Shown: positions 11,494-61,083 of the stretch, piece by piece
How positions within the stretch are numbered: the first letter of the stretch is position 1
How the letters are laid out: each line of letters begins with the position of its first letter
Assembly (NCBI GenBank): GCA_964016885.1
Contig: OZ024742.1
Location: forward strand, 91,016,001-91,080,000
Direction of reading: 5' to 3'
From: Eledone cirrhosa
Taxonomy: Eukaryota
DNA: 64,000 nt
Made by a program: the position numbers and the translations under genes
Notes under the pieces: generated by a model
What the model was told of the DNA's origin: nothing
Database searches by the model: none
Seen by the model: only the letters and a program-made list of their open reading frames with translations

Positions 11494-11700
11494 GGTAAAC
11501 AGAAATATCAACACAACCGGTACAGTATATGAAAGAGATATATTAGGTTAACGCTTGATATAGCAGGAAGAGGGTCTTAACGTTTCGGACGCTAGTCCTT
11601 CATCAGAAGAAAGCAGGAGAAATAAGATAGATTGAGGGGACGGGCGGGTTGGAATTGGAAAAAATGTCTTTAGATAAAAATAACAGGTCCATTCATGTTG
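11494..11700 (-). mobile_element. PLE-type pseudo-LTR fragment carrying an HHR, beside a (TA)n tract
   Basis: Contains a minimal HHR and abuts a TA/TG microsatellite; right boundary uncertain. Confidence 0.55.
11575..11610 (-). ncRNA. Minimal hammerhead ribozyme (dimer type)
   Basis: Minus strand: TCTT-CTGATGA-a GGAC tagc GTCC-GAAAC-GTT-AAGA; loopless palindromic stem III (ACGT). Confidence 0.75.
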
Positions 11701-21349: not shown

Positions 21350-21355
21350 TATATA

Positions 21356-21585
21356 TATTGTTATACTTTGGGAGGGTCATGTTGCCAATATAAGGAACAC
21401 AAGCACCAGTTGCATTTACTTCAATTTATTATAATAAATTTATAAATTTATTATAATAAATTGAAGTAAAAGCAACTGGTGCGTGTGTTCCTTATTGGCA
21501 ACATGACCCTCCCAAAGTATAACAATATCGGTTTCAACACACGTCTTCAGATAAAGAATCTTGCTAAACATATTCAGAAACGAAA
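21356..21585. mobile_element. Fold-back mini PLE insertion (two inverted pLTR ends plus tail) in (TA)n
   Basis: About 85-bp inverted arms centred near 21442, then the tail ATCGGTTTCAACAC...CAGAAACGAAA also seen at 22933-22994. Confidence 0.85.
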
Positions 21586-21611
21586 TATATATATATATAT
21601 ATATATATACG

Positions 21612-21642
<31 letters not shown>

Positions 21643-21795
21643 TGTTATACTTTGGGAGGGTCATGTTGCCAATAAGAAACACACGCACCAGTTGCTTTCA
21701 CTTCAATTTATTATAATAAATTTATAATAAATTTATAAATTTATAAATTTCTGGTTGGTTGGTTGGTTCCACAACCAGATAGTTGTTTATATATT

Positions 21796-21838
21796 GTCAT
21801 AGTTCTTTCGTCACACACTCTGTGACCTCTTCAGTGAC
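21796..21838 (-). ncRNA. Hammerhead ribozyme in PLE pseudo-LTR
   Basis: Minus strand: GTCA-CTGAAGA-g GTCAC agagtgt GTGAC-GAAAG aa CTA-TGAC. Confidence 0.75.
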
Positions 21839-22039
21839 TGGGGATTCCTCTCTTTGTTTCTGTGCCTCTCCTTTGTTCTGTCCTACGCCATTTTGTTTCT
21901 CTGTGTGTTTCGTGTGCTCAGTCTGCGCATGCGCCACATCCGGGTGTCTGTGTGTGTTTATGTTCATTTATTTATTTGTTTATTTACATGTTACTGGTTG
22001 GTTGTTTGTTCTATGTGTGTGTGTGTTTTCATTTTGTCC

Positions 22040-22563
22040 TTAATTGTTAGTTGTGATGTTGCTGTTCCACTCATATTTTCTATTTAATTTTGGTTGTAAT
22101 TCTTTTATGTTTATTGCCTCTGTAATTTGTCTAAACATTGCGTCTTTTCTGTGTGTAGATTCTATTTTTATTTCTATGTTCTCTAATTTACCCTTGTGTT
22201 CTATTTTAGCATGTTGGTAGAGTACAGATGATTCTTTACTATCTTGAAGGTCTCGCCAGTGTTCATTTATCCGTTCCCCTACACTACGAGCTGTCTCACC
22301 TATGTACACTATATTTTTGTCTCTACATTGTCCTTCAGTACACCTTAAGCTATACACTACATTTCTAGTTTTACAGTTAATATGGGGGCTTATTTTACAG
22401 GTTATACATTTCTTATCTATACATGAGGGTCTTTGAAAAGGGTATGTCTTGCTAATAAGTGTTTTTACGGAGGTACCTGGTCTTTCTACTATCTTAATAT
22501 TGTGTTTATGTTTATTTAGGGCCCTTCTAAATTTGTAAGCTAATTCACCTCTAGGGGTTGTAT
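22040..22563 (-). pseudogene. PLE GIY-YIG endonuclease C-terminal fragment (open frame, no native start)
   Basis: CIDKKCITC linker, NVVYSLRC...C....YIGETARSVGERINEH, YQH...EH, RQITEAINI...PKLNRKYEW; the ORF-track N-terminus (22564-22792) is only inverted pLTR sequence. Confidence 0.92.
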
Positions 22564-22736
22564 CGATGAACAACCAACCAGTAACATGTAAATAAACAAA
22601 TAAATAAATGAACATAAACACACACAGACACCCGGATGTGGCGCATGCGCAGACTGAGCACACAACACACACACAGAAACAAAATGGCGTAGGACAGAAC
22701 AAAGGAGAGGCACAGAAACAAAGAAAGGAATCCCCA

Positions 22737-22779
22737 GTCACTGAAGATGTCACAGAGTGTGTGACGAAAGAAGTATGAC
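22737..22779 (+). ncRNA. Hammerhead ribozyme in the inverted pseudo-LTR (stem III mutated)
   Basis: GTCA-CTGAAGA-t GTCAC agagtgt GTGAC-GAAAG aa GTA-TGAC. Confidence 0.65.
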
Positions 22780-23406
22780 AATATATAAACAACTATCTGG
22801 TTGTGGAACCAACCAACCAACCAGAAATTTATAAATTTATAAATTTATTATAAATTTATTATAATAAATTGAAGTGAAAGCAACTGGTGCGTGTGTTTCT
22901 TATTGGCAACATGACCCTCCCAAAGTATAACAATATCGGTTTCAACACACGATTTCAGATAAAGAATCTTGCTAAACAAATTCAGAAACGAAATATATAT
23001 ATATATATATATATATATGTGGGGGGGGGGGGGCGTGCGTGCGTGCGTGCGTGCGTGCATGCGTGCGTGTGTGTCTGTATGTCTGTGACATCTGTAAACA
23101 GTCTTAACAATGCTGACAACCCCAAGACCGGTTGATGACTATAAACAAAAGTTTAATGAATCGGATTAATTGCCGCTGGAGACGGGAAAACGAGGTCAGA
23201 GACCCATGCGGGGATATGAACCACTTATACCCTGCGTGTTGGGCGAACCGGCCCATGACATCAGATGACATTCGGTGGCTAATTACAGACACTTTACAAG
23301 ATTTAAACGTATAGCTAGAAGTGTGAAAAAGATTCCTTGTCTTACAAAGCATTGAGAAATTTGAAATCTTAAAACATAATCACTACAACTAAGTCATACA
23401 CACAAA

Positions 23407-24145: not shown

Positions 24146-24234
24146 GATAACAAAATATCGTTATAGGTAATCCAGTTAGACTGTAAATAAATCCCCTTTT
24201 TTGTACTGTTGACCATGTTATTCTCCACTTTTTC

Positions 24235-24362: not shown

Positions 24363-24413
24363 AGATTCTACAGGACTAGAACTGTTTCATTCTTTAGAAA
24401 TCATCAGGAATCT
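24363..24413 (-). ncRNA. Hammerhead ribozyme (type I)
   Basis: Reverse complement of 24560-24610. Confidence 0.8.
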
Positions 24414-24559: not shown

Positions 24560-24610
24560 AGATTCCTGATGATTTCTAAAGAATGAAACAGTTCTAGTCC
24601 TGTAGAATCT
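24560..24610 (+). ncRNA. Hammerhead ribozyme (type I)
   Basis: AGATTC-CTGATGA-t TTC taaa GAA t-GAAACAG ttctagtc CTGTA-GAATCT: 6-bp stem I, 4-bp stem III, GUA cleavage triplet. Confidence 0.82.
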
Positions 24611-27643: not shown

Positions 27644-27686
<43 letters not shown>

Positions 27687-28029
27687 GTTCATGTATATAT
27701 ATATTCATGTATATAAATATATATGCACGCACTCACGCATATATATATATATATACATATATATATGTATATATATATATGTAAGTATGCATGTATACGT
27801 ACATACATATATGTATACAGACGTACAGTAGCATGCACATATATATATATATATATATACATATATACATACATATGCATACAGGTACACATACATATAT
27901 GCACGTATCAGTTTAGCGGCGCATATTATAACGTCGCTTTGTTCGTTTGTAAACAAACTGAACAGCCTGAATTTATGCCATACGGTGTTAAGGCAACCAC
28001 GTCACCTTTTTGTTCAACACTGACACAGG

Positions 28030-28074
28030 AACGATGTACTAGTTTCAAGCTTGTTAGCTATCATCAGCACCGTT
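28030..28074 (-). ncRNA. Minimal hammerhead ribozyme, unit 1
   Basis: Minus strand: AACGGTG-CTGATGA-t AGCT aaca AGCT t-GAAAC ta GTA-CATCGTT. Confidence 0.85.
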
Positions 28075-28507
28075 TACCCATCTGCCAGATAGTTGAACGT
28101 TCGAAAGTATATACTTTCCTTATGAAAATTAACGGCTGAGCAGCCTAATTTGCATATTGAGTGAGTTAAATAGGTCAGGCATACCGAAAACGATAAATTG
28201 AAACAAAATGAAAACGAAATTTCATTTCTCACTCTTAGTATGGCACTTACTTAAATGTAAGTATGCATGTATACGTACATACATATATGTATACAGACGT
28301 ACAGTAGCATGCACATATATATATATATATATATATACATATATACATACATATGCATACAGGTACACATACATATATGCACGTATCAGTTTAGCGGCGC
28401 TTATTATAACGTCGCTTTGTTCGTTTGTAAACAAACTGAACAGCCTGAATTTATGCCATACGGTGTTAAGGCAACCACGTCACCTTTTTGTTCAACACTG
28501 ACACAGG

Positions 28508-28552
28508 AACGATGTACTAGTTTCAAGCTTGTTAGCTATCATCAGCACCGTT
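28508..28552 (-). ncRNA. Minimal hammerhead ribozyme, unit 2
   Basis: Identical to unit 1. Confidence 0.85.
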
Positions 28553-28979
28553 TACCCATCTGCCAGATAGTTGAACGTTCGAAAGTATATACTTTCCTTA
28601 TGAAAATTAACGGCTGAGCAGCCTAATTTGCATATTGAGTGAGTTAAATCGGTCAGGCATACCGAAAACGATAAATTGAAACAAAATGAAAACGAAATTT
28701 CATTTCTCACTCTTAGTATGGCACTTAAATGTAAGTATGCATGTATACGTACATACATATATGTATACAGACGTACAGTAGCATGCACATATATATATAT
28801 ATATATATACATATATACATACATATGCATACAGGTACACATACATATATGCACGTATCAGTTTAGCGGCGCTTATTATAACGTCGCTTTGTTCGTTTGT
28901 AAACTAACTGAACAGCCTGAATTTATGCCATACGGTGTTAAGGCAACCACGTCACCTTTTTGTTCAACACTGACACAGG

Positions 28980-29024
28980 AACGATGTACTAGTTTCAAGC
29001 TTGTTAGCTATCATCAGCACCGTT
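28980..29024 (-). ncRNA. Minimal hammerhead ribozyme, unit 3
   Basis: Identical to unit 1. Confidence 0.85.
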
Positions 29025-29245
29025 TACCCATCTGCCAGATAGTTGAACGTTCGAAAGTATATACTTTCCTTATGAAAATTAACGGCTGAGCAGCCTAATT
29101 TGCATATTGAGTGAGTTAAATCGGTCAGGCATACCGAAAACGATAAATTGAAACAAAATGAAAACGAAATTTCATTTCTCACTCTTAGTATGGCACTTAC
29201 TTAAATGTAAGTATGCATGTATACGTCCATACATATATGTATACA

Positions 29246-29331
<86 letters not shown>

Positions 29332-29356
29332 TTATTCCGGGTTCAATCGGGGTTAA

Positions 29357-29406
<50 letters not shown>

Positions 29407-29419
29407 TTATTTATTATGA

Positions 29420-29503
29420 CATTAAACAGATTAAAGTTTAAGTAAAGAACCTTTGCTCTCACCCTAAACAGGATCTTCGGATTTTAGTCTTCACATTTAT
29501 TAT

Positions 29504-29508
<5 letters not shown>
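29420..29508. mobile_element. Short TA-associated repeat family
   Basis: ACAGATTAAAGTTTAAG.AAAGAA and GTAATAATAAATGTGAAGA.TAAAATCC blocks recur in both orientations at 32146-32495, 34432-34555 and 49842-49875. Confidence 0.7.
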
Positions 29509-29577
<69 letters not shown>

Positions 29578-29589
29578 GGAGAAAATGAT

Positions 29590-30098
29590 ACATGCACACA
29601 TATATATATGTACGTATGGATTCACCGAACATTTATCATAATGCTCGGTGTGATTGTAAACAAACATCCCGTATTAAGCCGTAGTGTCCAGCAACCATCG
29701 TTGCTCGTTTGTTCAACACTGACAAAGGAACGCTGTACTAGTTTCAAGCTTATTAGCTATCGTCAGCAACGTATACCTTCTTGCCAGATTGTTGAACATA
29801 TATACTTACCTTATGCATATTAACGGGGCTGAGTAGCCCAATTTGCATATCAAGTGGGTTAATCGGCCGGGTGCACCGAAAACGATAAACGGTAAAAAAT
29901 GAAACGAAATTTCATTTCCCACTCTTAGTACGGCTGTTACTTAAATATAAGTATGTACACGTACATACATATATGTATACAGACGTACAGTAGTATGTAT
30001 ATATATATACATACATGCACACATATATATATGTACGTATGGATTCACCGAACATTTATTATAATGCTCGGTGTGTTTGTAAACAAACATCCCGTATT
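29590..30098 (-). mobile_element. Diverged relative of the 475-bp unit (about 1.2 units)
   Basis: Shares GTTCAACACTGACA.AGGAACG, ATTTGCATAT and CGAAATTTCATTTC..ACTCTTAGTA; 29590-29677 repeats at 30013-30098. Confidence 0.8.
29730..29772 (-). ncRNA. Minimal hammerhead ribozyme, diverged copy
   Basis: Minus strand: ACGTTG-CTGACGA-t AGCT aata AGCT t-GAAAC ta GTA-CAGCGT. Confidence 0.82.
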
Positions 30099-30352
30099 AT
30101 TTAGAGACAAGTATTTCATATACATATTACAAGATTCATATTGATACACTAAAATTGTTATACTTGTTTTAAGAGTTGTTTATCTCCCAGCAATTCTTGA
30201 CGCTCAGTAGCTAACTGTTATTCTATTTCATTGGTATTGCCATTGTTACTATTCGTGTACCCTTATTAAATGTTCTTAAGACTATGAATGGTCTCTTCTA
30301 TATCATTTATCACTTGCCTATCTCTATCTTCGGAGTAATATTCATCTATATA

Positions 30353-36761: not shown

Positions 36762-37045
36762 TATTCCAATTTCTAATTTCTGCCGGACCGGCAACCGCTC
36801 TTTCAAGCCAGTTCCTGTACACAGCTAAGTATTCTATAAGTCTCTAGCTGTGTCATTCTCGATAAAAGCACTGGATATGTAGTCCTGATGATTTCTAACA
36901 AGAATGAAACGCGTAGATTACTTCCCTTGCTTTTATCGAGAATCTAATTGTAATACGTGACGTATTCTATTCTATAGCGATTAGGTCTTCAAAATGTTTA
37001 TTATAAACATACAGAATATTTTCGAATATTCTATGTCTATATTCA
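36762..37045 (+). mobile_element. Short non-coding HHR element between microsatellites
   Basis: 5' module TGCCGGACCGGCAACCGCTCT is shared with the 42843-43362 / 49284-49830 family, followed by a different HHR. Confidence 0.75.
36879..36921 (+). ncRNA. Minimal hammerhead ribozyme
   Basis: GTAGTC-CTGATGA-t TTCT aaca AGAA t-GAAAC gc GTA-GATTAC, clamped by a perfect 16-bp stem 36855-36870 / 36928-36943. Confidence 0.85.
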
Positions 37046-37249
37046 TATATGTATATATATATATATGTATCCAGGAGACTCCAACCGTGAAGGTTGCATT
37101 TTTTCAGGGTATGTCAATATTCATTTATAAAACTAATCTATATTATATTTTATCTGATCTAAGCGCACCATAATCTGCCTTGGTGGCCCTTGAAATATGT
37201 ATAATGAAATAAATATGGTTTTATAAATATAGTTTCCATTTGTTAATAT

Positions 37250-38486: not shown

Positions 38487-41400
38487 TTAGCATGTTATGG
38501 TGTTGACATAATGTATATATGAAACTATATTTAATGCTGGTCTATATTTTTGAATAAACATATTTTCCTTATTTATTCGTATTTGTTCTGTTGTATTGTG
38601 AGCGCAAAGATAAAATGGGAAGACTTGGAATTTGGGTGTCTTATTACTTCCACATATGCCTAGATGTGCACTTAGTGGTATCTGTCTCGTGGTTGGATCT
38701 CGTAATTGTTGGCGATGAACTGTCATTCTGTTTCTGAGTGTGAGTTTAGTTTGTCCTATATAATCTTCATTGCATCCTTTACATTTAATGGCATAAAGTA
38801 GATTTTTTGATGAGCATGTGAAGTGATTTTTTTACAGCAAAATGTTGTCCTGATTGAAATGTATAAGTGTTGCCTTCAATGAGGTGAGTGCAGGTTCCAC
38901 AATTAGAGCGACCACATTTTTGACAGTTGGTTGTGGGTTTGGGTAAGTAATTTGGCATTGGTGAGTAATGTTTTTAATGTTGTCTTTTGCTTTTGATTAT
39001 GTTGTGTGTCTCAAGAGCTTTTTTCATTCTTGGGTCTTGTTTCATTCTTGGAATCTTGTGAATAGTGTTGTAAGCTTCCGCATTTCTTGGGTTGTGTGTT
39101 GAGATATATGATAGAATATTGGACGTACCTTGAATTTGTTTCTGTTTTCGTAATTCATCAATGCCTATTGCTTTAGCCCTTTCTATTCCATTATTTATTA
39201 GTAATGGAGTGTACTGTCTTTCGAGTAGATTTTCCTTTAATTCTTGAAGTCTTTTATTTCGTGTTTCATAATTGGAGACAATTGTGCAAATTCTTCTTGC
39301 TAGCAAATTCTTCTTTTAACCTAGCAAGAAGAATTTGCACAATTGTCTCCAATTAGGAAATAATTGTCTCCAATTATGAAACGCGACCCCGGTTGATAAA
39401 TAATGTGTGATATATAGCAGAAAAGTATATAATTGGAGACAATTGTGCAAATTCTTCTTGCTAGGTTAAAAGGGATGTTCGTCTTCGTGTGCTTTGGATG
39501 GTTGGAGATGAATAGCAGGTATTGTTTGGAATCTGTTGGTATGTAGTGCATGTCAGTTTCAATATTTGTTCCTTGTTTTAAAGATTAAGATGTCCAGAAA
39601 TGGGAGTTGATATTGGCTGTATTCCATTGTGAATTGAATGTGGTTATTAATGCCATTAATTAAATTTTTGAAATCATTTAGTTGGTCGAGTGTGTGAAAC
39701 CAAAGAATGAGACAATCATCCAAGTAGCGTTTCCAATTCTCTGATAAATATTTGTGGAAGTTCAATCCGTATTTTGATTTGGGCTGTTCATGTATCTGGA
39801 CTTCCAAGTATGCCATGACTAAGCTGGCATAAGTTGGAGCGGCTTTTGTAACCATCGCAGTCCCCGATATTTGCTTGTAAGTACTGCCATCGAAATAAAA
39901 AAGTTGTTCTGTAAAATAAATTTTAATCCCTCGGTGATGAAGCTTTTTTCTATTCTGTCAGGTATCTCATTGGGATATTTCTCTAGCCAGAATCCTATTG
40001 CTTCTAGTCCGTATTGGTGTGGGATCGTTGCGTAGAGATTCACTACATCGAAAGACACAATAATAGTGTCGTTGTTGACATGTTTGGGGAGGTGATTTAA
40101 GAGGTCCAGATCGTCTCTTACAATGTGTTTGAGAATTGGTTTTAATAGTATGTCTATAAAGTTGCTTAGTCTGTGTGTTTTACATTGTGGGCCCGCTACA
40201 ATTGGTCTTAATTTAAGGTCTGTGGGGTATTGTGTGTTAACGCAGGTTGAGGTGGATTGTTTACAGGCATCGTTAATTATTTTACACTTGTGGATCTTCG
40301 GAAGTCCGTAAAGGTTGCTGGTTTTATATTCAAAATGTGTTAGATAATCGCGTTCCTTTTTAGTTAAGTCTTCCTGGTATCGACAAATGAATGTGTTTAA
40401 TCTGGTCATCGAGAACATAGAATTTTTATATTGTTCAGCATCCATAATGACCACAGTACTTCCCTTGTCCGCTTCCTTAATTATAATGTCCATATTGTTT
40501 TTTAGTTCATGGATAATCTCCCATTCCCTTCGACCCGTGTTAGGTTTGGGTTTAGGTTGTAGTAGTTCATGGTATGGGAAAGTTGCTATGTGGTCACAAA
40601 ATCTGTCCAGAACTCTGTTTCTACCTTTTGTTGGCTTGTAGCTGCTATTATTCCGTACAATTGATTGGTCGTTATTCTCCTTGTCAAAAGATTCCTCTGT
40701 GAGACGTAATTTTCTACAGAAGTGTAAGATATCGTCATTTATCTCATTGGGGTTAGAGTATTGTGGTGTTGGTGTGAATTTAAGTCCTTTGGAGAGAATT
40801 TTAATTTGTTAGGCCGAGAAGTTTGTATTTGAAAGGTTGATTATTTTCGGTTTTTAAAATCGGTTTGTGCCACCGGGTCCCGTGGGTCCTGTGCCTTGGT
40901 CTAAAAAATGATTTTGCTGAATTGTTTTTTCATGGGTATTATTACATCTAATGCCATTTCCCCCTGTTATTGTGTTGTCTTGGATAGAAGTTTCGGACTT
41001 ATTGAGGTTCGGGTTGTTGATGGTCCGGGTTGTAGATTGTGTTCCTTTGCGTGGGTTGTGATCTACGATTTTGGAACAGGTTCTGTGTGTGTTGGGGTCT
41101 ACGGTTTTTGAATAGGTTTTGTGTGGGTTTTGATCTGCGGATCGGGTCCTGTCTTGTGTTGGGGGACATTCGGTTTTTGTTAGTAGGGTTATAGTTTTGT
41201 CTATGGGTTCTGGGATTATCGTCATAATTTTTCTGGGGGTATGTTGGACGTTTTGTTACTGTTTTTGTTATTTGTTGTGCGTGTGGTGTGTGAGTTTCAG
41301 TTTGTTTAAAAAATGGGTTACCTGCATGTTGTTCATTTTTGAAATCCATTTCATAGTTGTTGAACGAGGTGGCGTTTTTTCCCATCGCTGGAGGGATGTT

Positions 41401-42035
41401 AGTTCTTCATCCTCACAATTTTCTTTTCAAAGTTTTAAGGTTTTTTTCATAGAGTAGGCCTTCAGGGTGCCTTGAGATTTCTGTTTCCATCTGTTGGTTG
41501 AGTGACTTGAATTTTTCTTCGTTGGAGTTGGCTCTTAACCGCAACAGTTCTATTTCTATTTTAAACTTTTCTAACGCCATCTTTACCCTAAGTTTTTGTT
41601 GGTTTTCGGGTTCATTCGGGATGGGTTTTATTTGGAGTTTTTTTTTTTTTTGGAGGATGATTGGCGTCGAGTTTAGCCACTTTTCATATATGTCTGCCTT
41701 GCCATTATTTTTTAGGAGATTCCAAAAGGTGAATTTGCGTGCTGTGAGCTTTTGATTAGGGTGTTTTTCACTGAGTGGACATCTCGTAGATTGGGTTCTA
41801 ATGGTTGTTCCAGCGTTTGGAGCATTGCTGTTTCAAAGGTTTCGATTAGTTTAGTTCATGCTGGAGTAATATTCGTCACTTGGGTATTTTCTGTTTCTTC
41901 GTGGGGTCCTTTTTTATAGATATGTATTTGGTCCACTTTGATGATCAAAACTGAAAGTTTGGAGGAAATCTCTTTGAGTTTATTTAAGATGACTTGGGTC
42001 AGTGAGTTGTTGTTTTGTTGAAACTTTGGTGGCAT
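38487..42035 (-). pseudogene. PLE reverse transcriptase + GIY-YIG endonuclease, frameshifted
   Basis: IIIKEADKGSTVVIMD, LYGLPKIHK, LRPIVAGP, SFDVVNLY, APTYA, WKRYLDDC, IQFTME..LPFLDI, SNHPKH; CGRSNCGTC linker; YAIKCKGC...YIGQT....RMTVH...H...ENMFIQKYRPALN. Confidence 0.93.
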
Positions 42036-60941: not shown

Positions 60942-61083
60942 AGATGAGATTCTACAGGACTAGAACTGTTTCATTCTTTAGAAATCGTCAGGAATCTGGC
61001 TTTCTATATTAAAACTTTTATACTCTGCTATGTGTTGAGTACCTTACTTATTGTGGTTACCTCCGGTTCAACCCGGAATAACT
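60942..61083. mobile_element. Inverted mini-copy of the 24281-24627 HHR family in (TA)n
   Basis: 60942-60998 equals 24358-24414 (minus-strand HHR, CTGACGA variant, 60947-60997), joined to the reverse complement of 24281-24359. Confidence 0.85.

Follow-up and report, generated by a model that had tools for sequence, protein, structure and literature searches.

The locus studied here raises two questions: what kind of element is a short tandem repeat that carries a hammerhead motif in every unit, and by which route could it have spread? The window, a stretch of 64,000 nucleotides of the Eledone cirrhosa genome (contig OZ024742.1, positions 91,016,001 to 91,080,000), had been described in a first-pass annotation as holding a candidate retrozyme mobilised by PLE enzymes. 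Positions are counted from the first letter of the window, and the features used below are as follows.

27644..27775, no strand: target microsatellite of (TA)n type, adjoining the array at its 3' end
27776..29250, minus: family A1 array, 3.2 units
28030..28074, minus: type I hammerhead 1, predicted cut between 28037 and 28036
28508..28552, minus: type I hammerhead 2, predicted cut between 28515 and 28514
28980..29024, minus: type I hammerhead 3, predicted cut between 28987 and 28986
28043-28067, 28521-28545, 28993-29017 and 29742-29766, minus: hammerhead cores, with the letters given in the annotation
28515..28986, minus: predicted 472-nt monomer, whose ends pair as a long extension of stem I
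28037-28514, minus: predicted 478-nt monomer, adjoining the 472-nt one
28488..28580, minus: extended stem I around hammerhead 2
28671..28725, minus: 55-nt 'tail' segment (internal copy in unit 2), between the two genome-wide fixed 3' end sites
29250-29329, 29359-29400 and 29507-29573: further TA runs
29330..29358, no strand: end remnant of another hammerhead-bearing repeat family, with similar ends near 24200 and 61050
29408..29481, minus: terminal-repeat remnant from a coding Hydra-type PLE (82% over 74 nt)
29574..30099, minus: separate subfamily A2 insertion, 1.2 units, period 423 here
29729..29773, minus: type I hammerhead of the A2 copy, with a stem I G-U to U-G flip and the outer pair lost

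The array, its hammerhead motif and the related families

A tandem array with a period of 472, 3.2 copies and 97% matches was found by TRF at 27779-29300. Its three units (472-478 bp) differ by 1-4 substitutions and 0-10 gap columns, in agreement with the annotation, which had seen three near-identical head-to-tail units of ~475 bp; measured between predicted cuts, the monomers are 478 and 472 nt long. The unit is a non-coding, low-G+C tandem repeat (35.6% G+C): the longest ATG frames in two units span 123, 68, 62 and 30 aa, and the open frames of 140-148 aa in A1 lie on the other strand and cross the microsatellite. The array is 5'-truncated within the microsatellite tract of the unit, and its RNA-sense 3' end at 27776 is the fixed short end, without tail. 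The diverged copy that the annotation had counted with the array is instead a separate A2 insertion (unit 420-433 bp), set apart from the A1 array by TA runs and the ends of two other elements; it has a tail-type end at ~29574, followed by an internal deletion.

All three units of the array contain a type I hammerhead, with the intact minus-strand core, stem I and palindromic stem III read in the annotation. Stem I has 7 bp with one G-U, stem II has 4 bp capped by a tetraloop, and stem III has 2 bp, its six letters being palindromic. The base of stem II is a U-U mismatch, where G10.1-C11.1 is usual, in 23 of 28 aligned copies, and only five of the 28 form the outermost pair of stem I. In the A2 copy of the window the G-U to U-G flip of stem I does leave the core unchanged, as had been claimed, but not every pairing survives, as the outermost one is U-U. 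The motif had also been called minimal. Minimal PLE hammerheads have a helix II of 7-8 bp, a helix I of 4-5 bp, an extra base at 9/10.1 and G10.1-C11.1, according to the definitions given in PMC4209133; the window motif lacks this combination, with 6-7 bp in helix I, 4-5 bp in helix II, no extra base and the U-U of family A, and by the same definitions its helix sizes are those of the canonical metazoan type I motif. The Rfam search proposed in the annotation gave no match in the window at gathering score; a weak match to Hammerhead_HH9 scored 18.5 bits (E 0.36), with the cut-off at 52, in a list by E-value made up mostly of microsatellite matches to miRNA models.

Covariation, a check suggested in the annotation, was assessed on 28 of 43 distinct hammerhead-centred stretches, 15 having been dropped as junction-cut or nearly redundant, and 89.6% of the cells paired on the structure that we had named. 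Fourteen of 22 pairs had changed on both sides (shuffles 6.5 +/- 1.4, none of 500 as high; slid controls 3-4), although a handful of lineages (four copies of B and one of C) supply much of this signal, and the 14 pairs do not stand for 14 independent events. After 6-7 bp and a conserved 2-nt bulge, stem I continues into further helices that covary between families, suggesting that the two ends of a cut monomer would stay held together. The core was expected to be better kept than its flanks, and this was the case between A1 and a family B copy found through its flank, independently of the motif (core 11/11 identical, outside 205/309 or 66%, P 0.011); against the A2 copy of the window alone the difference was not significant (core 11/11, outside 208/265, P 0.07). 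Conservation of the core, and of the stems by compensatory change, across families that are ~66% alike elsewhere implies selection on the fold.

The genome search covered 2,995,841,428 bases in 1,796 contigs. The exact family A core, with two free positions, had 12,336 + 11,665 = 24,001 matches and its reversed control none, indicating that the core is not a chance pattern. A pattern requiring a base other than U at 10.1 had 9,899 matches (control 1), and among the first 100 listed nearly all belonged to a sister family, here named B, with G10.1-C11.1 and a unit of 461-470 bp. Family B has a predicted cut after GUU or GUC, arrays of up to ~31 units, and an overall fold like that of A with ~66% identity outside the ribozyme. 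A third family, C, has a 310-bp unit and 9,220 exact cores; its ribozyme is built as in A, and it is otherwise unrelated. A copy of C is found in the window at 36762-37054 (+); the palindrome of this family differs from that of A, and its arrays reach 27 units, with inverted arms and a 34-nt tail. Units of A1 were 462-591 bp long (36 extracted), and those of A2 420-433 bp, except for one of 21 with 469 bp. Together, A, B and C account for over 43,000 exact cores, and the head-to-tail repeat is present at many loci, from short arrays to long multimers.

Other hammerhead-like sequences were observed in the window. A fourth family, with cores at 24385-24407 (-), 24566-24588 (+) and 60969-60991 (-), has the U-U at the base of stem II as in A, but a longer stem III, and it occurs in an inverted pair. 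A lone canonical-looking core with a G-C-rich stem II lies at 11583-11606 (-). An octamer located 118 nt upstream of the cut, at 28626-28633 (-), is conserved in A1, in A2 and in the majority of B units (47/57 A units and 52/70 B units). Newt satellite 2 is cited in PMC2220036 as carrying an snRNA-type promoter. The octamer was absent from seven U1 upstream regions of this genome, and four of these compared with the units gave no match, leaving the idea of a U1-like promoter unsupported.

Insertion ends and the coding PLEs of the genome

The ends of the arrays were mapped at 105 loci: the window, 23 loci from a DNA search, 26 family B loci, and 55 chosen by their position within the first 22.5 Mb of contig 1. 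From 204 arms, 12 were dropped as low-complexity or overlapped and four ran off the locus. Among the 188 scored, 74 ended at a short site (+261 from the cut in A1, +220 in A2 and +235 in B), 89 at a tail site 55-69 nt further on, and 25 elsewhere; 152 of the 163 ends at the two fixed sites run into TA-rich sequence. Sixty inverted pairs joined at their 5' ends were found, 47 of them with both outer ends at fixed sites (one duplicated locus counted twice), and in 43 of these 47 one end was short and the other tailed, the remaining four having two ends of the same type (p 1.4e-9). The same one-tail rule was seen in all six scorable insertions among 10 loci of family C, with a tail of ~34 nt, so that the tails of the three families measure 34, 55 and 69 nt. 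The ends sit in TA runs, which would hide target-site duplications; in animal non-LTR retrozymes these exceed 4 bp when present.

Targets of the (TA)n type, 5' truncation, inverted arms and a tail at one end are marks described for PLEs (PMC8557442), and in one Hydra-type family of coding PLEs of this genome all three clear two-armed copies were likewise tailed at one end and short at the other. The arrays thus have the features of a non-autonomous PLE, namely fixed 3' ends with variable truncation at the 5' side, inverted arms, a single tail and a microsatellite target, and the insertions look as if they had been made by PLE enzymes.

Some loci have features of their own. L004 and L061 carry an identical flank beyond both insertion ends, in opposite orientation, and in L061 the array lies in a TA run between two inverted PLE arms. 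At the small hairpin that marks the A1 short 3' end, recurrent single-unit changes (window 28245-28255 and 28720-28726) consist of a 4-nt loss or one substitution on differing haplotype backgrounds, in a sample biased towards them because the DNA search query favoured such loci; at these query-biased loci the excess of the 4-nt length variant in terminal copies was not significant (p 0.20).

Coding PLEs coexist with the arrays. Tens of thousands of PLE candidates were found in the genome, including four families with intact ORFs of 713-868 aa and one older family. Searching from a PLE fragment next to one of the loci yielded a young family whose ORFs measure 738-745 aa, and four further fragments led to Hydra-type families of 713 and 784 aa, to a family of 827-868 aa with a C-terminal GIY-YIG, and to the older one. 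The 827-868-aa family is presumably 'Neptune-like'. Among named proteins, the best match to one PLE protein of this genome came from Argonauta (39% identity), and a 276-aa RT fragment had no match in Pfam. The 738-745-aa family bears the DKT, CxCX5C, CxxC and CxH marks of the Hydra clade (as listed in PMC8557442), a clade with a described representative in Octopus, Hydra-1_Obim (PMC8557442).

Remnants of PLEs were also seen in the window. An inverted, 5'-truncated PLE at 21355-22996 includes a C-terminal GIY-YIG fragment (22043-22498, minus), hammerheads of its own at 21806-21834 and 22741-22769, and, at one end, a tail of ~60 nt, similar in length to that of family A. Broken retroelement frames at 39559-41832 (-), with an RT-like stretch of 329 aa at 39819-40808, probably belong to another PLE family. 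Elsewhere, two young Hydra-type families (L236:4080-5560, 784 aa; L238:1150-2330, 713 aa) showed no canonical core in the spacer between tandem ORFs, although hammerheads are reported as universal in the Hydra clade.

In another explanation, foreseen in the annotation as the refuting case, a coding PLE outside our sample would have the unit as its terminal repeat (pLTR), and the arrays would be its truncated products. Such an origin has a precedent in Xenopus, where 24 of 57 retrozyme families match PLE termini according to a preprint (bioRxiv 10.64898/2026.07.22.740005), and would draw on the abundance of PLE candidates and on the PLE fragments found near some arrays. However, none of units A, B and C was found as a terminal repeat in the five coding PLE families, the matches across 38 + 53 PLE loci being only nested insertions or low-complexity sequence, and in alignments of end regions two of 15 reached about the maximum of 60 shuffles, with none clearly above it. 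Moreover, the hammerheads of the coding PLE families, where present, are of other types, and no array ran into an ORF in a constant arrangement at the 55 position-sampled loci. The unit thus appears to share no terminus with these five families; other families may exist, and we regard the terminal-repeat origin as very improbable.

Template, array growth and folding

If the ribozyme cut a linear RNA, reverse transcription would halt at the cut, and 5' ends would be expected there. This was not observed: two of 189 5' ends fell within -2..+3 of the cut (2.5 expected) and nine within 12 nt (10.3 expected), while 49 of 192 arms cross at least two intact junctions. A genome-wide count of starts was added because the mapped loci had been found through intact cores. 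Clean starts numbered eight at the cut and 78 at a control site lying 9 nt downstream, the latter falling to 67 places when a local array of 12 copies is taken as one; about half of the control places, by eye, have microsatellite-register flanks, a kind invisible to the test pattern, which is blind to copies whose flank gives TA in register with the cut. Indels were found beside the cut in one of 284 cores, and at the short-end site in none of 108 family B junctions. The absence of a pile of 5' ends at the cut suggests a template that was either circular or an uncut multimer, and since the ribozyme is under apparent selection, we infer that a circle would be the simpler of the two.

Divergence between units was 0.5-1.0% within arrays and 4.6-9.0% between arrays. 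One B insertion contains 16 identical units across both arms, and in one C insertion a private 2-nt deletion is present in 20 of 20 units, again in both arms. Some long arrays also hold shared variants: these are scattered in arrays of 29 and 14 units, another array alternates two unit types (ABAB) at 13 sites, and in the 20-unit C array variants recur with a period of 7, suggesting that later duplication, conversion or multimeric templates contribute to long arrays. One pass round one monomer circle does not explain these shared and periodic variants, which therefore count against the circular reading. The periodic and block-like variants, together with the homogeneity within arrays, could also be taken as marks of an ordinary satellite that grows by DNA-level duplication and carries a fossil ribozyme. 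As an origin this is largely refuted, and we give it a very small probability: the short arrays are dispersed, fixed 3' and variable 5' ends, the one-tail rule and TA targets are marks of retrotransposition, and the structure is conserved at the RNA level. DNA-level duplication stays as a secondary process.

The predicted folding energy of circular monomers was -145 to -152 kcal/mol (z between -8.9 and -11.5, 25 shuffles each), with 65-71% of the bases paired in the fold model, to which the microsatellite hairpin contributes. The branching of the folded monomer was alike in A1, A2 and B, and the hammerhead strand folded 26-42 kcal/mol better than the opposite strand. The active dimer fared differently among families. 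Formation of a double hammerhead cost +4.9 kcal/mol in A1, +6.0 in A2, +1.8 and +3.4 in B and 0.0 in C, and its probability was 0.00 in four of four A dimers and one of three B dimers, 0.27-0.30 in the other two B dimers and 0.59-0.65 in C. In the case of A1 and A2, a fold that blocks the core is preferred by the model, which takes no account of tertiary contacts; the dimer is the favoured form in C alone and, in part, in B. The 2-bp palindromic stem III makes action as a dimer plausible, but for the family of the window this modelling speaks against it.

The disfavoured dimer in A1 and A2 is a model-based point against a working ribozyme, and it agrees with an explanation in which the unit is a non-autonomous PLE passenger whose ribozyme is slow or dispensable, the arrays being built without any circle from uncut multimers or by a reverse transcriptase that jumps between templates. 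The lack of truncation at the cut would fit an uncut RNA equally well, the spacer of the coding family Hy4 lacks a canonical core, and, by analogy, the hammerhead-free non-autonomous Chlamys elements described in PMC8557442 also insert as multiple head-to-tail copies, which likewise weighs against the need for a ribozyme. However, the compensatory changes across families that are ~66% alike imply that the fold is under selection, arms of 19-30 units would require as many uncut motifs, and the exact cut junctions and the absence of short-site indels in family B differ from the scars expected of template jumps. We therefore consider this explanation rather unlikely.

The reading that we prefer, and hold to be likely from the genomic evidence, is that of a non-LTR retrozyme, with a multimeric RNA that would be cut, circularised and copied into TA microsatellites by PLE enzymes. 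The proposal made in the annotation is thus supported in part, by copy number, covariation, insertion anatomy and the presence of young intact PLEs. The hammerhead strand would be transcribed as a multimer and cut to ~470-nt monomers, probably by two motifs sharing their palindromic stem III. The monomer would be closed to a circle, ligation being aided by the long stem I that holds both ends. Two internal sites, 261 and 316 nt beyond the cut, would serve for priming on either strand of the target, reverse transcription would pass the ligated junction for up to ~30 rounds, and the two cDNAs would join head to head, with local duplication or conversion later reshaping some long arrays. That PLE insertions carry a tail at one end, and that the ribozyme junction is read through, could both be due to such two-site priming on both strands. 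More tentatively, at somewhat less than even chances, the genome may record this mechanism itself, in the form of three arrayed families copied from circular RNA by PLE enzymes with two fixed internal priming sites.

Relation to described retrozymes and PLEs

Animal non-LTR retrozymes have been defined by Cervera and de la Pena (2020, PMC7229834), with circles found in coral, mussel and axolotl and PLEs named as likely partners. Family A resembles the elements described there in being short, low in G+C and non-coding, with one type I hammerhead per unit, a highly self-paired monomer, thousands of copies and coexisting PLEs. Its U-U in stem II occurs also in the axolotl HHR_Amex2; an axolotl motif with this mismatch cleaved weakly as a monomer (PMC7229834), a point against an active ribozyme in family A. 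The differences are a unit of 420-590 bp, at or above the 150-450 bp given for animal non-LTR retrozymes, and fixed paired ends, tails and inverted arms that have no counterpart in that description; in family A, cleavage and a unit-length RNA are predictions from sequence. The main text of PMC7229834 names no cephalopod. A giant squid draft has 235 Rfam hammerhead loci (PMC6962438), and no cephalopod retrozyme was found in the literature searched, although the supplements of PMC7229834 and of the 2026 preprint discussed next may list some.

Retrozymes have been argued to be non-autonomous PLE derivatives in a 2026 preprint (Li, Clavereau, Pollet, bioRxiv 10.64898/2026.07.22.740005), whose sample, as described, comprises 31 vertebrates, three insects and one coral, and no mollusc. 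Our families are of the same class and have the same proposed partner; the units reported there measure 51-972 bp, and only one of nine predicted Xenopus dimers cleaved in vitro, which also speaks against ready cleavage in our families. In that account the link to PLEs is co-occurrence and pLTR homology, and local amplification after insertion is favoured. Our families, in contrast, showed no pLTR homology to the five coding families, and their link is the anatomy of the insertions, with multimers already present in both inverted arms.

Endonuclease-bearing PLEs, above all those of the Hydra clade, as described by Craig et al. (2021, PMC8557442), share with our families the (TA)n targets, 5' truncation, inverted arms, single tail and a hammerhead upstream of the 3' ends, whereas our units have no ORF and a canonical ribozyme instead of the long-stem-II PLE type. 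The tails of 34, 55 and 69 nt compare with 30-40 nt described for PLEs (PMC8557442) and ~90 nt in a resident Hydra-type family. The non-autonomous Chlamys elements, such as MRC1, are likewise non-coding PLE passengers with multiple head-to-tail copies, but in the same description most of them lack hammerheads, and their 3' ends are common to the coding partner, unlike those of the window unit (PMC8557442).

Both the retrozyme class and its PLE origin are therefore already in print, and the window family is a new addition. A retrozyme in one more mollusc-like genome was to be expected; the added value lies in the mechanism. The transposition of PLEs is described as still undefined (PMC8557442), and a circular template is a hypothesis in PMC7229834 and in PMC4209133, which besides defining the canonical and minimal motifs proposes such templates for PLEs. 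In this genome, thousands of young non-coding insertions obey the two-end rule of coding PLEs and pass the predicted cut without scars, which would tie retrozymes to PLE enzymes without shared sequence. They also make up a large repeat class missed by Rfam thresholds, and their short units are templates suited to a test in vitro. If our reading is true, several intact young PLE families and retrozymes in one genome would offer a ready system for the circular-intermediate model.
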